Positions 1 through 9,313 of a DNA stretch of 9,313 nucleotides are shown here, piece by piece. The translations under genes were made by a program, and so were the position numbers. Source of the DNA: a virus (Duplodnaviria; Heunggongvirae; Uroviricota; Caudoviricetes); the IMG/VR virus record IMGVR_UViG_2526164634_000020, positions 1-9,313 of that record; one strand, written 5' to 3'. Below the pieces are notes generated by a model. The model was not told where the DNA came from. It worked only from the letters and a program-made list of their open reading frames with translations, and searched no databases. Each line of letters begins with the position of its first letter. The first letter of the stretch is position 1.

Positions 1-1514
1 AACGATATTATTCCGGCCGACCACTGCCTGCATGATGTGCAGGATATGAGTACGCTGAATCATCCGAAGGCAGACCTGAGCAAAGGGCAGTACGGCTGTG
101 TCGGCCAGGGCTTACATATTGCCAAAAAACTGCTCCCGTATATCCCGAATAACGCGGGGATCCTGCTGGTACCATGCTGTCGTGGTGGTTCGGCATTCAC
201 CCAGGGCGCGGAGGGGGACATTCAGTGCGGACACGGGGGCCAGCCAGGATTCGGCACGCTGGGGGGTGGGTAAACCGTTATATCAGGACCTGATTGCGCG
301 CACTAAAGCTGCATTACAGAAGAACCCGAAAAATGTGTTGCTGGCGGTGTGCTGGATGCAGGGAGAGTTTGACATGAGCGCCGCCACCTACGCACAGCAA
401 CCTGCGCTGTTTACAGCCATGCTGAAGCAGTTTCGTGCTGACCTCACTGTGTTTAACGCGCAGTGTCATGGTGGCAGTGCTGTAAATGTGCCGTGGATTT
501 GTGGTGACACGACGTATTACTGGAAAAATACATACGCTACCCAGTACGACACCGTGTACGGCGGGTATAAAAACAGGGAGAGTGAGGGCGTTTATTTTGT
601 GCCCTTCATGACAGACGGTAACGGCGTCAATACCGCCACTAACGCACCGGCAGAAGATCCGGATATTCCGGCATCAGGATATTACGGTGCGGCATCGAGA
701 ACGAATGGAAACCAGGTATCATCAAACCGCCCGACACATTTCAGTTCATGGGCGCGCAGGAGCATTATTCCGGATCGTATGGCAACCGCTATTCTGAACG
801 CAGCCGGGCGCACCTCAGCTTTCATCAGTGGTAAGGCACCGGAAATCAAACCCTCGCCCGGCGTCGACACGCCATCGGGGCCGTCTGAAGATGCATCCGT
901 ACGCACAATCTCCCTGTTGCCGACAGCCGGAGAGGCTGCTGCGCAGGGCTGGACCATTAAGGACGGCGGAATTCAGTTGTCGGGTGGTGTATTTAAGATC
1001 GCCAAGCAGAGCAATAAAACCTGGTCCCTGATGCATCCGGTGGATGACGCAGTCTCCCTGCTGACACGGGGTGGCAGACTGAGCTGTAAGTTTCGACTGT
1101 CAGGCGCACTGACCAACAACCAGTTCGGCCTGGGAATTTATCTGTATACCGATGTAGCGTTACCTGACGTCGTGGCGATGACCGGGACTGGTAACCCGTT
1201 CCTGATGTCGTTCTTCACCCCAGACCACAGACGGCAAACTGAATCTGATGCATCACAAGAAAGCAGGAAACACAAAGTTGGGCGAGTTCGGGAATTACAG
1301 TAATGACTGGCAGACGCTGGAACTGGTGTTCACCGCCGGCAGTGCCACGGTTACTCCGAAACTGAATGGAGTGGCTGGCCCGGCATTCCAGGTCATAAAA
1401 GACAGTCTGACACTGGGGCTGAATGCGCTGACGCTGACGGATATTACCAAAAATGCAGCGTATGGCGTTGAGATAGAAAGTCTGGTGCTGGAGATAAATG
1501 CACCGGCAGCATAA
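1..1514 (+). pseudogene. nanS: Prophage sialate O-acetylesterase, NanS-p-like (SASA/DUF303 family), 5'-partial at window edge, two apparent +1 frameshifts
   Basis: Frame 1 from the window edge reads ...HCLHDVQDM...GQGLHIAKKLLPYIPNNAGILLVPCCRGGSAFTQGAEG; frame 2 continues ...TGASQDSARWGVGKPLYQDLIARTKAALQKNPKNVLLAVCWMQGEFD...PWICGDTTYYWK...TNAPAEDPDIPASGYYG...; I recognise these motifs from E. coli NanS and prophage NanS-p esterases. Frame switches at the G5 run 213-217 and again at the C4 run 1218-1221; the C-terminal part runs in frame 3 to the stop at 1512-1514. ORF-track entries 37..273, 98..1303 and 1248..1514 are pieces of this one gene. Confidence 0.6.
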
Positions 1515-1521
1515 TAAAAAA

Positions 1522-1551
1522 AGCCAGCGCCCACTCTGAAGGACGCTGGCT
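1522..1551 (-). terminator. Hairpin with flanking A/T run, candidate intrinsic terminator (better formed for minus-strand transcription)
   Basis: GCCAGCG (1523-1529) pairs with CGCTGGC (1544-1550), loop about 14 nt; A7 at 1515-1521 becomes a U-run after the stem only on the minus strand; plus-strand side is followed by TAAAAC. Confidence 0.3.
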
Positions 1552-1725
1552 AAAACGGGTAGATGTACTTCACATGATACTTATACTTGGCAGTACATTT
1601 TCTGACAGACAGTGACGGATGATGTCAAGATATTGTGTCATTTATAACCTGAATCAGGGGTGGCCGGAATGTTATCTGGCATTTTTAGCAGAGCCTGAAT
1701 GCCATAATCACGGCTCCCGGCGTTG

Positions 1726-1765
1726 GCCGTCAGTGGGTGACACTGGCGGCTTTTTTGTTTTTCTT
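1726..1765 (+). terminator. Strong rho-independent terminator upstream of the holin gene (tR-prime-like)
   Basis: 10-bp stem GCCGTCAGTG / CACTGGCGGC (one G-U pair), 5-nt loop GGTGA, then TTTTTTGTTTTT; sits 40 bp upstream of S. Confidence 0.55.
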
Positions 1766-1806
1766 TACTTTCATTTTCTGTCGGCGGTGACGGAGACATA
1801 CATCAG

Positions 1807-2013
1807 ATGGAAAAAATCACAACAGGTGTGTCATACACCACGTCAGCGGTGGGGACGGGATACTGGTTACTGCAGCTGCTGGACAAAGTCTCTCCGTCCC
1901 AGTGGGTGGCAATAGGTGTGCTGGGGAGTCTGCTGTTTGGCCTGCTGACGTATCTGACAAACCTTTATTTCAAGATTAAAGAAGATAAGCGTAAGGCTGC
2001 GAGAGGTGAATAA
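1807..2013 (+). CDS. S: Class II holin, phage-21 S-type pinholin (68 aa)
   Basis: [68 protein letters not shown]; two TMDs plus charged C-tail; near-colinear with my recollection of phage 21 S21; stop overlaps the R start (TAATG). Confidence 0.8.
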
Positions 2014-2510
2014 TGTCGCCGTCATTACGCAAGGCTGTTGCTGCTGCTATTGGTGGTGGGGCTGTTGCCATAGCGTCTGTGCTCATCACTGGTCCGAGTG
2101 GTGACGATGGCCTGGAAGGTGTCAGCTACATACCATACGAAGATATCGTTGGCGTATGGACTGTATGTCACGGACACACCGGAAAAGACATCATGCCCGG
2201 TAAAACGTATACCGAAGCAGAATGCAAAGCCCTCCTGAATAAAGACCTTGCCACGGTCGCCAGACAAATAAACCCGTACATCAACGTCGATATACCGGAA
2301 ACAACGCGCGGCGCTCTTTACTCGTTCGTTTACAACGTGGGCGCTGGCAATTTCAGAACATCGACGCTTCTTCGCAAAATAAACCAGGGCGATATCAAAG
2401 GCGCATGTGATCAGCTACGGCGCTGGACATACGCTGGCGGTAAGCAATGGAAAGGGCTGATGACTCGCCGTGAGATTGAGCGTGAAGTCTGTTTGTGGGG
2501 GCAACAATGA
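2013..2510 (+). CDS. R: SAR endolysin, phage-21 R-type lysozyme (165 aa)
   Basis: N-terminal Gly/Ala-rich signal-anchor-release segment [30 protein letters not shown] followed by lysozyme core [21 protein letters not shown]...; immediately follows the pinholin, typical pinholin/SAR-endolysin pairing. Confidence 0.9.
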
Positions 2511-2944
2511 GCAGAGTAACCGCGATTATCTACGTTCTGGTCATCTGCCTCATCGTCTGCCTTTCATGGGCTGTTAATCATTACCGTGATAACGCCATCG
2601 CCTACAAAGAGCAGCGCGATAAAGCCACATCCATCATCGCTGATATGCAGAAGCGGCAACGTGATGTAGCAGAACTTGACGCCAGATACACAAAGGAGCT
2701 TGCTGATGCTAATGCGACTATCGAAAGTCTCCGTGCTGATGTTTCTGCTGGGCGTAAGCGCCTGCAAGTCGCCGCCACCTGTGCAAAGTCAACGACCGGA
2801 GCCAGCGGCATGGGCAATGGAGAAACCCCAGGACTTACAGCAGATGCTGAACTCAATTATTACCGTCTCCGAAGTGGAATCGACAGGATAACCGCGCAGG
2901 TTAACTACTTGCAGGAGTACATTAGGACGCAATGCCTTCGATGA
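2507..2944 (+). CDS. Rz: Rz i-spanin (inner-membrane spanin subunit)
   Basis: ATGA start/stop overlap with R; [34 protein letters not shown]... N-terminal TMD plus coiled-coil periplasmic region, closely lambda-Rz-like. The ORF-track start at 2495 is GTG; ATG 2507 is the more likely start. Confidence 0.85.
2706..2891 (+). CDS. Rz1: Rz1 o-spanin lipoprotein, embedded in the +1 frame of Rz
   Basis: AAGGAG at 2693-2698 about 7 nt before ATG 2706; [20 protein letters not shown] with lipobox VSAC, then proline-rich [13 protein letters not shown] as in lambda Rz1; lies entirely inside Rz. Confidence 0.75.
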
Positions 2945-3016
2945 TAGCGATAATTTTCCCATTATCTTTCATATGCGTGATTTTAGTTAGTTTTAGTCGC
3001 AACACGAATAAAACAG

Positions 3017-3043
3017 AGAACCACCCGCTATACGAGTGGTTCT
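3017..3043. terminator. Bidirectional intrinsic terminator between convergent Rz and the minus-strand small ORF
   Basis: 8-bp stem AGAACCAC / GTGGTTCT with 11-nt loop; T-rich on both sides (plus: GATTTACACTTTTG; minus: CTGTTTTATTCG). Confidence 0.4.
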
Positions 3044-3060
3044 GATTTACACTTTTGAAA

Positions 3061-3291
3061 CTAAAAGCTAAATACTTGAGCAAGAACAGCTAGCGCTGCG
3101 CAAAAAGCAGCCCGTTTATTCCATTTACTTTGTATTTCAATGGCTTTAAAACAACCCAGTGATGAGAAACTGCCTTGTTCCGTTTTTGGTGGGTGTTCTT
3201 TGGAAGATGCAAAACATGAAATAATCCAAAAAATGGCGGAAAAAATTCCAAAAATTATTGAAGGCAAATGATGCTCTTTCAAAAACTCCAT
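3061..3291 (-). CDS. Hypothetical small membrane or lipoprotein-like protein (76 aa), AT-rich accessory gene
   Basis: MEFLKEHHLPSIIFGIFSAIFWIISCFASS...; hydrophobic N-terminal segment ending in a lipobox-like IISC; convergent with Rz and followed on its own strand by the 3017-3043 terminator. No family recognised. Several T homopolymers make the frame fragile. Confidence 0.35.
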   Translation of the reverse strand: MEFLKEHHLPSIIFGIFSAIFWIISCFASSKEHPPKTEQGSFSSLGCFKAIEIQSKWNKRAAFCAALAVLAQVFSF

Positions 3292-3903
3292 GACTTAACT
3301 CTCTTAAAAGTTGCTAAACATCGCTCGCAAACAAGAAAGAAAAGTTCTGTTGCGGGCACTCCACAATTTAAACGCCACACAAGCAGCTATTAGGTGGACG
3401 GTTCCAAGATTGCTATCAACTGCCACCCGAATACCGTCAAAACTTGACGTCCAACCAAGAATTATTGAGTTGTAAACTCAACGCAATGATCTGGTTGGTA
3501 TAAATGTGACATATGTCATGAATCGACTAGTTGAGATAGTCAAGATGGGCTTGCTTGACATCATCACCACAACCGGAGCCAACAATGGCAGATTGCGTTA
3601 CCCAGATTTGATAAAGGCATTTTAGCCTGACATAACTATGCACTGTATCGTCGCCGTATTCCCGCATCAACAGAGACCACAGCCCGAGAGGGAGACTCCT
3701 CTGCGCGAGTGTGCGGGGATAATCAAAAACGATACACACCGGGGTTTACCGTGTTAACGGAGCGCGGCGTTGTCCCCTCATGGTCGCTGGTCCGGTGCGA
3801 TGGTGGAAGAAACCGGACGATGTGTTACCTCGCAAGCTCTGTTATGTCATGTGTCTGATTTGTGATTTAAGTCGGATAATTGTCATTGCCATTAAGCAGA
3901 GGA

Positions 3904-3934
3904 TTGATGACCGACAGGGCTGCATTGTTAGAAT
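3904..3934 (+). promoter_or_regulatory. Candidate sigma70 promoter for the TonB_C lipoprotein gene
   Basis: TTGATG (3904-3909), about 19-bp spacer, TAGAAT (3929-3934), roughly 30 nt upstream of ATG 3967; pattern match only. Confidence 0.2.
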
Positions 3935-3966
3935 AAGACTTATTCTTATCTATGCCGGGAATAAAA

Positions 3967-4293
3967 ATGAAAAGAAATCTTCCGTTAATTATTTTGTTGT
4001 CTTCTTTGGTTATGGGCTGTACGCAACATAAAACAGATATGCCTCGACAGTTGGTTAAGGCATTACCACAATATCCGGCCTATGCCGCGGCAAATTATAT
4101 AAAGGGACGGGTTGATGTGAAGTTTGATATTGGTGCTGATGGTACTGTCACCCGAATTGAGTTTATCCGTTCAGAGCCGCACCATCTGTTTGATGAGCAG
4201 GTTGTAAAGGCGATGGCAAAATGGCGATTTGAGAAGGACAAGCCGCGTAAAGGCGTGAAGAAAACATTTATCTTTAGTCCTTCAGCACCCTGA
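3967..4293 (+). CDS. Outer-membrane lipoprotein carrying a stand-alone TonB C-terminal domain (about 108 aa)
   Basis: Signal peptide MKRNLPLIILLSSLVMGC with lipobox and +2 Thr; mature part LPQYPAYAAANYIKGRVDVKFDIGADGTVTRIEFIRSEPHHLFDEQVVKAMAKWRFEKDKP aligns motif for motif with the E. coli TonB C-terminal domain (QYPA..A....G.V.VKFD...DG.V......S.P...F...V..AM..WR.E..KP). The ORF-track start 3952 lacks an RBS; 3967 is preferred. Confidence 0.7.
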   Translation: MKRNLPLIILLSSLVMGCTQHKTDMPRQLVKALPQYPAYAAANYIKGRVDVKFDIGADGTVTRIEFIRSEPHHLFDEQVVKAMAKWRFEKDKPRKGVKKTFIFSPSAP

Positions 4294-4484
4294 TTATTTT
4301 ATCAGAAGTTAATTATCACTCTGTTGCTATTCAGTACATCCCTGCAGGGTAAAGTCTTGTTTCGCCGGATATGAAGATGAAATATTGTTAGAAGACAGTA
4401 GCTACCGGTTCCTGTAACCGAACGTTCATTTCTCGTTATTTTTCATGCTGGCCGGGCGCAGGTGCTTTGCACTGAGAGATCCCC

Positions 4485-5693
4485 TCATAATTTCCCCAAA
4501 GCGTAACCATGTGTGAATAAATTTTGAGCTAGTAGGGTTGCAGCCACGAGTAAGTCTTCCCTTGTTATTGTGTAGCCAGAATGCCGCAAAACTTCCATGC
4601 CTAAGCGAACTGTTGAGAGTACGTTTCGATTTCTGACTGTGTTAGCCTGGAAGTGCTTGTCCCAACCTTGTTTCTGAGCATGAACGCCCGCAAGCCAACA
4701 TGTTAGTTGAAGCATCAGGGCGATTAGCAGCATGATATCAAAACGCTCTGAGCTGCTCGTTCGGCTATGGCGTAGGCCTAGTCCGTAGGCAGGACTTTTC
4801 AAGTCTCGGAAGGTTTCTTCAATCTGCATTCGCTTCGAATAGATATTAACAAGTTGTTTGGGTGTTCGAATTTCAACAGGTAAGTTAGTTGCTAGAACCC
4901 ATGGCTCCTTTGCCGACGCTGAGTAGATTTTAGGTGACGGGTGGTGACAATGAGTCCGTGTCGAGCGCTGATTTTTTCGGCCTTTAGAGCGAGATTTATA
5001 CAATAGAATTTGGCATGAGATTGGATTGCTTTTAGTCAGCCTCTTATAGCCTAAAGTCTTTGAGTGACTAGATGACATATCATGTAAGTTGCTGATAGGT
5101 TTCCAGTTTTCCGCTCCTAGGTCTGCATATTGTACTTTTCCTCTTACTCGACTTAACCAGTACCAACCCAGCTTCTCAACGGATTTATACCATGGCACTT
5201 TAAAGCCAGCATCACTGACAATGAGCGGTGTGGTGTTACTCGGTAGAATGCTCGCAAGGTCGGCTAGAAATTGGTCATGAGCTTTCTTTGAACATTGCTC
5301 TGAAAGCGGGAACGCTTTCTCATAAAGAGTAACAGAACGACCGTGTAGTGCGACTGAAGCTCGCAATACCATAAGTCGTTTTTGCTCACGAATATCAGAC
5401 CAGTCAACAAGTACAATGGGCATCGTATTGCCCGAACAGATAAAGCTAGCATGCCAACGGTATACAGCGAGTCGCTCTTTGTGGAGGTGACGATTACCTA
5501 ACAATCGGTCGATTCGTTTGATGTTATGTTTTGTTCTCGCTTTGGTTGGCAGGTTACGGCCAAGTTCGGTAAGAGTGAGAGTTTTACAGTCAAGTAATGC
5601 GTGGCAAGCCAACGTTAAGCTGTTGAGTCGTTTTAAGTGTAATTCGGGGCAGAATTGGTAAAGAGAGTCGTGTAAAATATCGAGTTCGCACAT
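4485..5693 (-). CDS. tnp: IS10 transposase (402 aa), apparently intact
   Basis: MCELDILHDSLYQFCPELHLKRLNSLTLACHALLDCKTLTLTELGRNLPTKARTKHNIKRIDRLLGNRHL... matches the Tn10/IS10 transposase over its full length. Confidence 0.95.
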   Translation of the reverse strand: MCELDILHDSLYQFCPELHLKRLNSLTLACHALLDCKTLTLTELGRNLPTKARTKHNIKRIDRLLGNRHLHKERLAVYRWHASFICSGNTMPIVLVDWSDIREQKRLMVLRASVALHGRSVTLYEKAFPLSEQCSKKAHDQFLADLASILPSNTTPLIVSDAGFKVPWYKSVEKLGWYWLSRVRGKVQYADLGAENWKPISNLHDMSSSHSKTLGYKRLTKSNPISCQILLYKSRSKGRKNQRSTRTHCHHPSPKIYSASAKEPWVLATNLPVEIRTPKQLVNIYSKRMQIEETFRDLKSPAYGLGLRHSRTSSSERFDIMLLIALMLQLTCWLAGVHAQKQGWDKHFQANTVRNRNVLSTVRLGMEVLRHSGYTITREDLLVAATLLAQNLFTHGYALGKL

Positions 5694-5754
5694 CTTGTTG
5701 TCTGATTATTGATTTTTCGCGAAACCATTTGATCATATGACAAGATGTGTATCC
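5686..5754 (+). ncRNA. IS10 RNA-OUT antisense RNA (region retained in the truncated IS10)
   Basis: Position inferred from remembered IS10 coordinates (pOUT near nt 115 directed toward the outside end); the region contains the long imperfect inverted repeat ACATCTTGTTGTC...GACAAGATGT that forms the RNA-OUT stem. Boundaries approximate. Confidence 0.35.
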
Positions 5755-5844
5755 ACCTTAACGTAAGCGTACAGCCTGAACCGTCTGGTCAGAATCTGAC
5801 GAATTAGACAAAGTGGTGTCCACCAAATAAGTAGTGGGAACCAA

Positions 5845-5873
5845 TGAGGTAGCCTGAGTTTAACGGACACTCC
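5845..5873 (+). repeat. Left terminal inverted repeat of the IS3-family element
   Basis: See element entry; hand alignment, imperfect. Confidence 0.4.
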
Positions 5874-5908
5874 TTCCTGAAATAGAATGGCATCAGAAGG
5901 AGCTAATA

Positions 5909-7048
5909 ATGAGCAGAAAAACCCAACGTTACTCTAAAGAGTTCAAAGCCGAAGCTGTCAGAACGGTTCTTGAAAATCAACTTTCGATCAGTGAAGGTGC
6001 TTCCCGATTATCTCTTCCTGAAGGCACTTTAGGACAATGGGTTACCGCCGCCAGAAAAGGGCTCGGTACTCCTGGTTCCCGCACGGTGGCTGAACTGGAA
6101 TCTGAAATTCTGCAACTGCGTAAGGCGTTAAATGAAGCTCGCCTTGAGCGAGATATATTAAATTGCACAGGAGTCGCTGAAAAATACGCGTTAATCGAAC
6201 AATGGCGACAACAATTTCCCATTGAAGCGATGTGTCAGGTATTTGGTGTATCCAGGAGCGGTTATTACAACTGGGTACAGCATGAACCCTCAGACAGAAA
6301 ACAAAGTGATGAGCGGCTAAAACTGGAGATTAAGGTGGCGCATATCCGCACTCGCGAAACATATGGAACCCGGCAGCTCCAGACGGAGCTGGCAGAGAAT
6401 GGCATCATCGTTGGTCGTGACCGACTGGCACGTCTTCGTAAGGAGCTAAGGCTACGCTGTAAGCAGAAACGCAAGTTCAGAGCGACTACGAACTCGAACC
6501 ACAATCTGCCAGTTGCGCCAAATCTGCTGAACCAGACGTTCGCTCCTACAGCACCAAATCAGGTCTGGGTGGCGGACCTGACGTATGTTGCCACACAGGA
6601 GGGATGGTTGTACCTCGCTGGCATCAAAGATGTTTATACGTGCGAAATTGTCGGCTACGCCATGGGAGAGCGCATGACAAAAGAGCTGACAGGTAAAGCC
6701 CTGTTTATGGCGCTCAGGAGCCAGCGCCCACCTGCCGGGCTAATCCACCACTCTGATCGAGGTTCACAGTACTGCGCATACGATTACCGTGTCATACAGG
6801 AGCAGTTTGGTCTGAAAACATCAATGTCGCGTAAAGGTAACTGTTACGACAACGCTCCGATGGAAAGCTTCTGGGGAACGCTGAAAAATGAGAGCCTGAG
6901 CCACTATCGTTTTAATAACCGGGATGAAGCCATCTCAGTAATACGGGAATACATTGAGATTTTCTACAATCGTCAGCGTCGTCACTCTCGTCTGGGGAAT
7001 ATCTCCCCGGCAGCCTTCAGGGAAAAATACCATCAGATGGCTGCTTAA
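5909..7048 (+). CDS. IS3-family transposase, single fused OrfAB-type ORF (379 aa)
   Basis: AAGGAG RBS 7 nt before the ATG; N-terminal HTH (MSRKTQRYSKEFKAEAVRTV...) and leucine zipper (ELESEILQLRKALNEARLERDIL) typical of IS3 OrfA, joined in frame to an rve/DDE core (VWVADLTYV, HHSDRGSQYCA, NAPMESFWGTLKNE, NRQRRHSRLGNISP). Confidence 0.9.
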   Translation: MSRKTQRYSKEFKAEAVRTVLENQLSISEGASRLSLPEGTLGQWVTAARKGLGTPGSRTVAELESEILQLRKALNEARLERDILNCTGVAEKYALIEQWRQQFPIEAMCQVFGVSRSGYYNWVQHEPSDRKQSDERLKLEIKVAHIRTRETYGTRQLQTELAENGIIVGRDRLARLRKELRLRCKQKRKFRATTNSNHNLPVAPNLLNQTFAPTAPNQVWVADLTYVATQEGWLYLAGIKDVYTCEIVGYAMGERMTKELTGKALFMALRSQRPPAGLIHHSDRGSQYCAYDYRVIQEQFGLKTSMSRKGNCYDNAPMESFWGTLKNESLSHYRFNNRDEAISVIREYIEIFYNRQRRHSRLGNISPAAFREKYHQMAA

Positions 7049-7061
7049 AAAAAGAACAAAT

Positions 7062-7091
7062 GGTAGTGTCCGCTATTGCCAGTACACCTCA
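7062..7091 (+). repeat. Right terminal inverted repeat of the IS3-family element
   Basis: See element entry; hand alignment, imperfect. Confidence 0.4.
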
Positions 7092-7202
7092 ACATTCCAC
7101 CATGCATTCCGATTAACGCCGCATAGCCAGTTGGACTTTGCTACTTTGTGAGAGGTAGTACCTTCTATCCAGTGCGAATCTAATTAATGGAATAAATGAT
7201 TT

Positions 7203-9199
7203 ATGAGTGAAAATGATACAATCCCAAAGAAGTCTACAAGTCAGATTAACAAAGCGGTATTCTTTACATCTGCTTTGCTAATTTTCCTTCTTGTCGCCTT
7301 TGCCGCCGTATTCCCGGATGTCGCCGACAAAATTTTAAACTACTTCAGCAACAAATCTTCACGAATGCCAGCTGGTTCTACATCCTTGCTGTGGCCCTGA
7401 TTTTACTGAGTGTCACGTTCCTTGGACTCTCACGCTACGGTGATATCAAGCTGGGCCCGGACCATGCGCAGCCTGATTTCGGCCACCACTCCTGGTTTGC
7501 GATGCTTTTTTCGGCAGGGATGGGGATCGGCCTGATGTTCTTTGGCGTTGCCGAACCTGTAATGCATTATCTTTCGCCACCCGTTGGCACTCCAGAAACC
7601 GTTGCGGCAGCTAAGGAAGCAATGCGTCTGACCTTTTTCCACTGGGGACTGCACGCATGGGCAATTTATGCCATTGTGGCGCTGATTCTGGCGTTCTTCA
7701 GTTACCGTCACGGTCTGCCTTTAACTCTGCGCTCCGCACTCTATCCCATTATTGGCGATCGCATATACGGACCTGTAGGACATGCGGTTGATATTTTCGC
7801 TGTTATAGGCACGGTCTTTGGCGTTGCGACATCACTGGGTTACGGTGTTTTGCAGGTGAATGCCGGTTTGAACCATCTTTTCGGGGTGCCCATCAATGAA
7901 ACGGTGCAGGTAATTCTGATCGTGGTCATCACGGGGTTAGCGACGATTTCAGTGGTGTCCGGTCTGGATAAGGGAATACGTATCCTGTCTGAACTCAATC
8001 TGGGTCTGGCTTTGTTGCTCCTGGCGCTGGTCCTGTGTCTGGGACCAACCGTGCTTCTGCTGAAGTCATTTGTGGAAAATACGGGCGGTTATCTTTCGGA
8101 ACTGGTGAGTAAAACGTTCAACCTTTACGCGTATGAGCCCAAGTCGAGCAACTGGCTGGGGGGCTGGACATTACTGTACTGGGGATGGTGGCTTTCATGG
8201 TCGCCGTTTGTGGGGATGTTCATCGCACGGGTCTCCCGCGGGCGAACCATTCGCGAGTTTGTCACCGGCGTGCTGTTTGTTCCCGCGGGTTTTACGCTAA
8301 TGTGGATGACGGTGTTTGGTAACAGCGCGATCTATCTCATTATGAACCAGGGGGCCACAGACCTCGCCAATACTGTTCAGCAGGATGTGGCGCTGGCCCT
8401 GTTTAATTTCCTGGAGCATTTCCCGTTCTCTTCTGTGCTGTCATTCATTGCAATGGCGATGGTCATCGTCTTCTTTGTAACGTCTGCTGATTCGGGGGCA
8501 ATGGTTGTGGATACTCTGGCATCAGGTGGAGTGGCAAACACACCCGTCTGGCAGCGAATATTCTGGGCCTCGCTCATGGGCATTGTTGCAATTGCGCTTC
8601 TCCTTGCCGGAGGGCTAAGTGCGCTGCAAACGGTGACAATAGCGAGTGCATTGCCCTTCTCAGTGATCTTACTAATATCTATATACGGACTTTTAAAAGC
8701 TTTGCGCCGGGATTTGACCAAGCGTGAAAGCCTGAGCATGGCGACAATTGCTCCTACGGCTGCACGTAACCCAATTCCTTGGCAGAGAAGGTTACGCAAT
8801 ATCGCGTATCTGCCGAAGCGATCTCTTGTGAAACGTTTTATGGACGACGTTATCCAGCCCGCCATGACGCTGGTTCAGGAGGAACTGAACAAGCAGGGGA
8901 CGATAAGCCACATTAGTGATGCAGTCGACGATCGTATTCGTCTTGAAGTCGATTTGGGCAACGAGCTGAATTTTATATATGAAGTGAGGCTTCGCGGGTA
9001 TATCTCACCGACCTTCGCGCTCGCCGCAATGGATAATGATGAGCAGCAGACTGAACAACATCGATATTATCGCGCTGAGGTTTATCTCAAAGAAGGCGGT
9101 CAAAATTATGATGTGATGGGCTGGAACCAGGAACAGCTGATTAATGACATACTGGACCAGTACGAAAAACACCTGCACTTCCTGCACCTGGTTCGTTAA
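7203..9199 (+). CDS. BCCT-family transporter, BetT-like choline/betaine transporter, with apparent -1 frameshift near the 5' end (possible pseudogene)
   Basis: BCCT signature WTLLYWGWWLSWSPFVGMFIARVSRGRTIREF; C-terminal cytoplasmic tail resembles BetT. The N-terminus (7203-7355, frame 3: MSENDTIPKK...ADKILNYFSNK) continues as IFTNASWFYILAVALILL... in frame 2; the shift lies at the A3 run 7353-7355. ORF-track entries 7203..7400 and 7391..9199 are one gene. Confidence 0.8.
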
Positions 9200-9261
9200 T
9201 AGCAACATGCCGTCCTGGGGGCGGCAATTATTATCCCGGCCGCAATATGGGGGAATGCAGA

Positions 9262-9313
9262 ATGATTTCACGCTGGAAATGGATGCTGAAGCAGACAATT
9301 AAAAAACTATGGT
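9262..9313 (+). CDS. Possible 5' end of a downstream gene (partial, unknown product)
   Basis: ATG 9262 with G-rich SD-like GGGGGAA about 7 nt upstream; frame open to the window end (MISRWKWMLKQTIKKLW...). Too short to classify. Confidence 0.2.
   Translation, partial: MISRWKWMLKQTIKKLW

Follow-up and report, generated by a model that had tools for sequence, protein, structure and literature searches.

Two extra bases that break a prophage nanS-p-type esterase gene in the draft genome of Escherichia coli DEC12D are probably homopolymer errors of the assembly

The stretch of DNA analysed here, referred to as the window, is 9,313 nucleotides long and corresponds to the entire contig AIHD01000030.1 of assembly GCA_000250275.2, the draft genome of Escherichia coli DEC12D. 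By exact protein look-up, the products of its open reading frames (ORFs) were matched to EHX49023-EHX49037. The window is laid out as follows:

1-4471: late region of a lambdoid prophage, with esterase, holin, RrrD lysozyme, Rz-type lysis protein and TonB-like gene
1-1514, + strand: nanS-p-type esterase gene, 3' 1,514 nt (82% of the gene), read in frame 1, then 2, then 3, with the stop codon at 1512-1514
1522-1551: GC-rich terminator-like hairpin with A/T runs on both sides, immediately 3' of the esterase stop, scored on the - strand
1807-2944, + strand: lysis cassette (class II holin, RrrD lysozyme, Rz-type lysis protein), intact and belonging to the esterase prophage
4472-5762: IS10/ISVsa5 copy, about 37 nt of one end absent
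5763-9313: common chromosomal locus, with the region 3' of lpxM, an IS3-family transposase, a BCCT gene and the start of a DUF2254 gene

The gene at 1-1514 had been taken for a nanS-p-like esterase in a preliminary description, and this identification is borne out by the SASA and DUF6645 domains detected with Pfam, by the annotations of homologues in genomes and phages, and by its place directly 5' of the holin gene of a lambdoid prophage, as expected for NanS-p. Homologous copies were found by megablast in 1,973 of the 5,426 complete E. coli genomes, where they are annotated as 'SASA family carbohydrate esterase' or 'DUF6645 domain-containing protein'. The best two matches in this search were 99.3% identical and covered 1,598 nt against 1,600 nt of the query; the closest intact genes, those of loci L001 and L002, are 1,851 nt long. 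Moreover, the homologue in Stx1a phages, with 93-95% DNA identity, is annotated as '9-O-acetyl-N-acetylneuraminic acid deacetylase'. The contig ends within the gene, and the 5' 339 nt, which would include DUF1737 and the GQSN serine motif, are missing from the window. For a full-length repaired protein, the N-terminus with DUF1737 and GQSN (aa 71-74) was borrowed from the L001 allele; on this protein, Pfam placed DUF1737 at 3-50, SASA at 66-262 and DUF6645 at 467-577. The SASA domain (PF03629) scored 47.4 bits on the repaired full-length protein against a cut-off of 24.8, and 27.1 bits on the frame-2 fragment alone, while DUF6645 within the window scored 70.1 bits after repair. The window gene is, with its function predicted by homology, an ordinary prophage nanS-p sialate O-acetylesterase gene of a known family.

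NanS-p removes the 9-O-acetyl group of Neu5,9Ac2, which allows growth of the lysogen on mucin-derived sialic acids, and carries a lectin-like carbohydrate-binding module as its C-terminal domain (PMC8065619, PMC10462455). Activity on Neu5,9Ac2 was reported for every tested allele of EDL933 and O104:H4 (PMC8065619). We compared the window gene with NanS-p of STEC and EPEC lambdoid prophages (for example z1466 of 933W and vb_24B_21 of phi24B). With the borrowed N-terminus, the repaired protein would have the same DUF1737-SASA-C-terminal (DUF6645) architecture (PMC10462455), and the gene likewise lies between the Q/tRNA region and the holin. Several paralogues are present per genome, as in EDL933 and O104:H4 (PMC8065619): complete E. 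coli genomes contain a median of 2 and up to 12 nanS-p places, and relatives carry 4-5 or more copies. Unlike NanS-p Stx prophages, the related loci examined contain no stx and have IraM and a DNA methyltransferase upstream instead; 5' of the esterase, the near-identical loci comprise a Q-like gene, the methyltransferase, tRNA-Ile, tRNA-Arg and iraM. Also unlike known NanS-p, the window gene is, as recorded, split into three ORFs. With the chromosomal NanS (YjhS) of E. coli K-12, it shares the SASA family (PF03629) and the presumed substrate, but NanS is a much shorter, chromosomally encoded protein of 326 aa that lacks DUF1737 and DUF6645 (PMC8065619, PMC10462455), whereas the window gene resides on a prophage.

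The split of the esterase was examined by three-frame translation. The protein is read in frame 1 from position 1 to about 213, ending ...RGGSAFTQGAEG, then in frame 2 from ...GTFSADTGASQDSARWGVGK... through ...NPFLMSFFT, and finally in frame 3, which begins QTTDGKLNLMHHKK... and runs to the stop codon at 1512-1514. The runs at which the frame changes, the resulting fragments and a further length difference downstream are listed below:

213-217, + strand: G5 run, one G above the G4 of every other copy examined; shift after Gly185, inside SASA
1218-1221, + strand: C4 run, one C above the C3 of every other copy examined; shift after Thr519, inside DUF6645
1-273, + strand: frame-1 fragment EHX49023.1, 90 aa, partial, its last 18 residues out-of-frame
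266-1303, + strand: frame-2 fragment EHX49024.1, 345 aa
1278-1514, + strand: frame-3 fragment EHX49025.1, 78 aa, with one other carrier, an indel-riddled NCTC assembly
1660-1661, + strand: T against TT in all ten related loci, a single-base deletion in the non-coding spacer between esterase and holin

In a global alignment against the two best loci, positions 1-1600 showed 10 substitutions and exactly two gaps, both of them single-base insertions in the window. The two +1 frameshifts that had been proposed at the G5 run and the C4 run are thereby located exactly, by alignment as well as by translation. As had been predicted, the removal of one base at each site yields an uninterrupted frame; it has 503 codons, and the repaired product differs from WP_000874278.1 by only 3 residues (A191T, G401V and N402D in full-length numbering). 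Apart from the two indels, the esterase contains no stop codons. The alignment to intact nanS-p genes that had been called for shows that the relatives read G4 and C3 and do not follow the frames as written in the window. The earlier picture of a gene broken by two frameshifts holds for both sites; to this must be added the truncation of its 5' end by the contig end.

With the deletion at 1660-1661, the prophage part of the window has three indels, and two more lie at the BCCT gene (see below). All five single-base indels of the window are located within runs. In four of the five, the longer allele forms a run of at least 3 bases, against 16% expected for random insertions (p = 0.003).

We then looked for the extra bases in other sequences. 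In the 5,426 complete E. coli genomes, a 57-mer with the G5 allele had no exact match among 2,514 places in 1,301 genomes, and a 71-mer with the C4 allele had none among 1,164 places in 795 genomes; in both searches, the best match per record was always the query with one gap. Likewise, exact-pattern scans of species-representative genomes, JGI metagenomes and IMG/VR returned no match to a 24-mer with G5 or a 28-mer with C4, while the G4 version and the C3 version of the patterns were each found in at least 120 viral contigs. At the protein level, the frameshifted 345-aa product was present on no other contig among ~15 billion proteins, and it sits in a 249-member cluster of mostly partial proteins. 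The repaired esterase, both single-repair versions and the repaired BCCT protein had no exact match in the protein collection, a result that is uninformative for the esterase, since its N-terminus came from another strain. If the gene were a genuine pseudogene, its lesions might be shared with relatives; no relative and no other assembly shares either of them. Each is a single-base change in a run that is confined to one assembly, as expected of homopolymer artefacts.

Two apparent carriers were considered and set aside. The Logan protein P0073, which clusters with the frame-1 fragment, was a candidate for an independent G5 allele, and its sequence proved to be that of a divergent in-frame homologue. 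The NCTC assembly L028 (GCA_900448305.1), the other carrier of the 78-aa fragment, was a candidate for a shared C4; its run reads CC and is accompanied by 21 other indels. Overall, over 6.2 kb aligned with the complete 12A genome, L028 shows 22 single-base indels and not a single substitution. These indels split the same esterase into four or more ORFs, and one of the deletions lies in the very same C run. Another NCTC assembly, L017 (GCA_900449865.1), shows 6 homopolymer deletions in 13 kb.

The same prophage carries an intact 616-aa gene in the complete genomes of the O111:H2 strain 12A and of FDAARGOS_1059, as well as in the drafts AIHA01, AIHB01 and AIHE01 (GCA_000250215, GCA_000250235 and GCA_000250295). 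We infer from the adjacent accessions and EHX numbers that these three drafts are other DEC12 strains of the same submission. To compare indel counts, each locus was aligned to the complete O111:H2 12A genome and recombinant or mosaic blocks were masked, with the following result:

Window (AIHD): 3 single-base indels in 4.4 kb aligned
AIHB (L020): 5 single-base indels in 19.3 kb aligned
AIHE (L021): 7 single-base indels in 18.1 kb aligned
AIHA (L022): 6 single-base indels in 16.7 kb aligned
Five other-project assemblies (JHTA01, DADFIK01, DAJQHX01, CP066032, UASE01): 0 indels in 78.6 kb aligned

The four AIHA-AIHE drafts together carry 21 indels in 58.5 kb, all at different prophage positions. 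Fourteen of the 21 lie in mononucleotide runs of at least 3 bases, and only three fall outside runs of at least 2. They split the genes for the terminase large subunit, portal, gpW and protease as well as the TonB-like gene; the complete genomes have unbroken copies of the terminase, portal and protease genes. In the five assemblies of other projects, 90 substitutions and 0 indels were counted. The chance that all 21 indels would fall in the four batch drafts is very low (binomial p = 1.7e-8). Moreover, the indel:substitution ratio of the window, taken over both parts outside the IS, is 5:13 against 0:90 in these controls (Fisher p = 7.7e-5). An excess of non-shared indels is thus seen in the batch-mates but not in the independent assemblies, the distribution expected of homopolymer artefacts. 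At the batch density of 0.33-0.63 indels per kb, a stretch of 1.5 kb would contain two indels with a probability of 0.09-0.25. The two hits in the esterase gene are therefore unremarkable at the batch rate, and no gene-specific explanation is needed.

The preliminary description had also relied on the BCCT gene as an example of the same pattern in the same window. Two run-length differences were found there:

7198-7200, + strand: T3 run, one T above all relatives compared (T2), 3 nt 5' of the BCCT start codon (7203)
7329-7332, + strand: A4 run, one A below intact BCCT genes (A5), a single-base deletion

Contrary to that description, the lesion inside the gene is a deletion (A5 to A4), accompanied by an extra T 5' of the ATG. 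The deletion splits the BCCT gene (7203-9199) into an ORF of 65 aa at 7203-7400 and an ORF of 602 aa at 7391-9199. The 602-aa product is present on this contig only. The 65-aa product was found in identical form on 19 contigs from unrelated strains, among them NCTC, nanopore-like and Logan assemblies. Several of the A4 carriers are obviously error-rich; two Logan contigs (L011 and L012) are otherwise clean. To judge from these contigs, the A run is a recurrent hotspot, technical or real, and a real mutation may have occurred there. Since the lesion is a deletion and its truncated product recurs on 19 unrelated contigs, the BCCT lesion alone is weaker support for a technical cause than had been assumed.

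Two further changes in this gene, the transitions at 7481 and 7484, lie 3 nt apart and convert Ser94-Tyr95 of the BCCT protein to Gly-His. Together with 7134G and 7180C, they were found in no other BCCT locus compared.

We infer with good confidence that the extra G and the extra C of the esterase gene are homopolymer base-calling or consensus errors of the draft assembly, and not lesions in the bacterial DNA. The consensus of the 2012 draft would over-call the G run at 213-217 and the C run at 1218-1221, and the gene in the DEC12D cell would have G4 and C3 at these sites, coding for an intact esterase of 616 aa. The batch was presumably sequenced on a homopolymer-error-prone platform. The 2012 DEC collection was probably sequenced largely by Roche 454 pyrosequencing, which would fit. 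A technical cause had already been leaned to in the preliminary description, and it gains strength from the scattered indels of the batch-mate drafts and their lack in the assemblies of other projects. The pattern is like that of pyrosequencing or early long-read homopolymer errors: single-base indels in runs, at assembly-specific sites, which frameshift an otherwise identical sequence and are absent from the same element in assemblies of other projects. Unlike in a pure series of homopolymer errors, two or three of the batch indels lie outside runs.

From the batch-mates' intact allele, the window copy differs by 8 non-mosaic substitutions over 4.4 kb, of which 864T is private. Within the gene, nine of the ten substitutions that separate it from the batch-mates' allele match alleles of other nanS-p paralogues, and five of these nine cluster at the contig end, within its first 27 nt. 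Paralogue-type substitutions are located at window positions 6-27, 233, 256, 866 and 1466, and 864T is found on no other contig. By the alleles that they carry, the paralogue-type substitutions seem to point to natural mosaicism or to a consensus mixed from several paralogues.

A variant of the technical explanation follows from the second of these readings, namely that reads of nanS-p copies, which are 90-96% identical, were merged into a mosaic consensus with miscounted runs. The paralogue alleles and their crowding at the contig end favour such a collapse, as do the 4-5 or more nanS-p copies in genomes of the lineage. No paralogue examined carries G5 or C4, however, so that collapse alone cannot make the extra bases, and the same mosaic pattern arises when prophages recombine naturally. 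Moreover, the chromosomal part of the window, which is single-copy, has single-base indels as well (7200 and 7329-7332). We regard collapsed paralogues as a possible but rather doubtful source of the errors, and what weight they receive overlaps with the confidence placed in the technical explanation.

If the frameshifts were instead real, the gene would be a strain-specific pseudogene in which slippage had twice independently inserted one base (+1), within a prophage remnant cut short by IS10; its loss would be tolerated through other nanS-p paralogues. We consider this unlikely. Redundancy is plausible with several nanS-p copies per genome, slippage mutations in nature likewise favour homopolymers, and the BCCT A4 allele recurs elsewhere on some contigs that are otherwise clean (L011 and L012). 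The several substitutions relative to the batch-mates' intact allele would also allow the copy a history of its own. Against this, both esterase lesions are singletons in every collection searched, and the window has a far higher indel:substitution ratio than clean assemblies of this phage. Similar scattered indels are found in essential phage genes of the batch-mate drafts, at sites that are not shared. Other signs of decay are absent from the esterase, which has no stops and only 3 amino-acid changes.

The pseudogene reading also draws on the state of the prophage, which ends at a truncated IS10 and lacks terminase and head genes; a separate, decaying copy under relaxed selection would be possible. 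The prophage sequence stops at 4471 against IS10, without the terminase and head genes that are present in relatives. The IS10 copy lacks about 37 nt of its outer end, and the right junction, at 5762/5763, is off any IS terminus. Neither the junction at 4471/4472 nor that at 5762/5763 was found in any of the 5,426 complete E. coli genomes. The IS10 copy joins the prophage late region to the lpxM-BCCT locus, through either a strain-specific rearrangement or a chimeric contig. Given that no complete genome has these junctions and that the one on the right is non-canonical, a chimeric contig is possible, which speaks against the pseudogene. The picture of a decaying prophage rests on IS10 junctions that are unique to this contig and that may themselves be products of the assembly.

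Functional recoding, by two programmed +1 ribosomal frameshifts or with the runs as phase-variable switches, would account for two homopolymer sites at which one base less restores the full-length protein, but such a signal should be conserved, and it is practically excluded by thousands of homologues that are all in frame with G4 and C3, with no conserved frameshift site or variable tract among them. Among clean assemblies, no length variation was observed beyond this single record, and known contingency tracts are longer than runs of 4-5 bases.

If the cause is technical, the GenBank ORFs EHX49023-EHX49025 and the split BCCT products (EHX49036 and EHX49037) are spurious, and such fragments of drafts add false entries to protein databases. 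Read support is needed before frameshifts in the 2012 batch drafts, or in some NCTC long-read assemblies, are called pseudogenes. If the lesions were real, they would represent a further case of decay in a prophage gene that has several copies, and would indicate ongoing erosion of redundant prophage esterase copies in the EPEC O111:H2 lineage. The biological weight of the finding is small.

Two other features of the window are worth recording. Strong terminator-like hairpins lie at 1522-1551 and 1725-1751, between the esterase stop and the holin start, with four terminator-like sites counted in all against 0.4 expected in shuffles.

The IS3-family (IS600-like) transposase at 5909-7048 is a single ORF of 379 aa without the orfA/orfB frameshift, of which the GenBank record of the contig annotates only the last 272 codons. 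It occupies a fixed site, with lpxM on one side and the BCCT gene on the other, and this IS copy may have become fixed and possibly domesticated. The identical transposase protein is recorded in >3,000 blocks of the collection.
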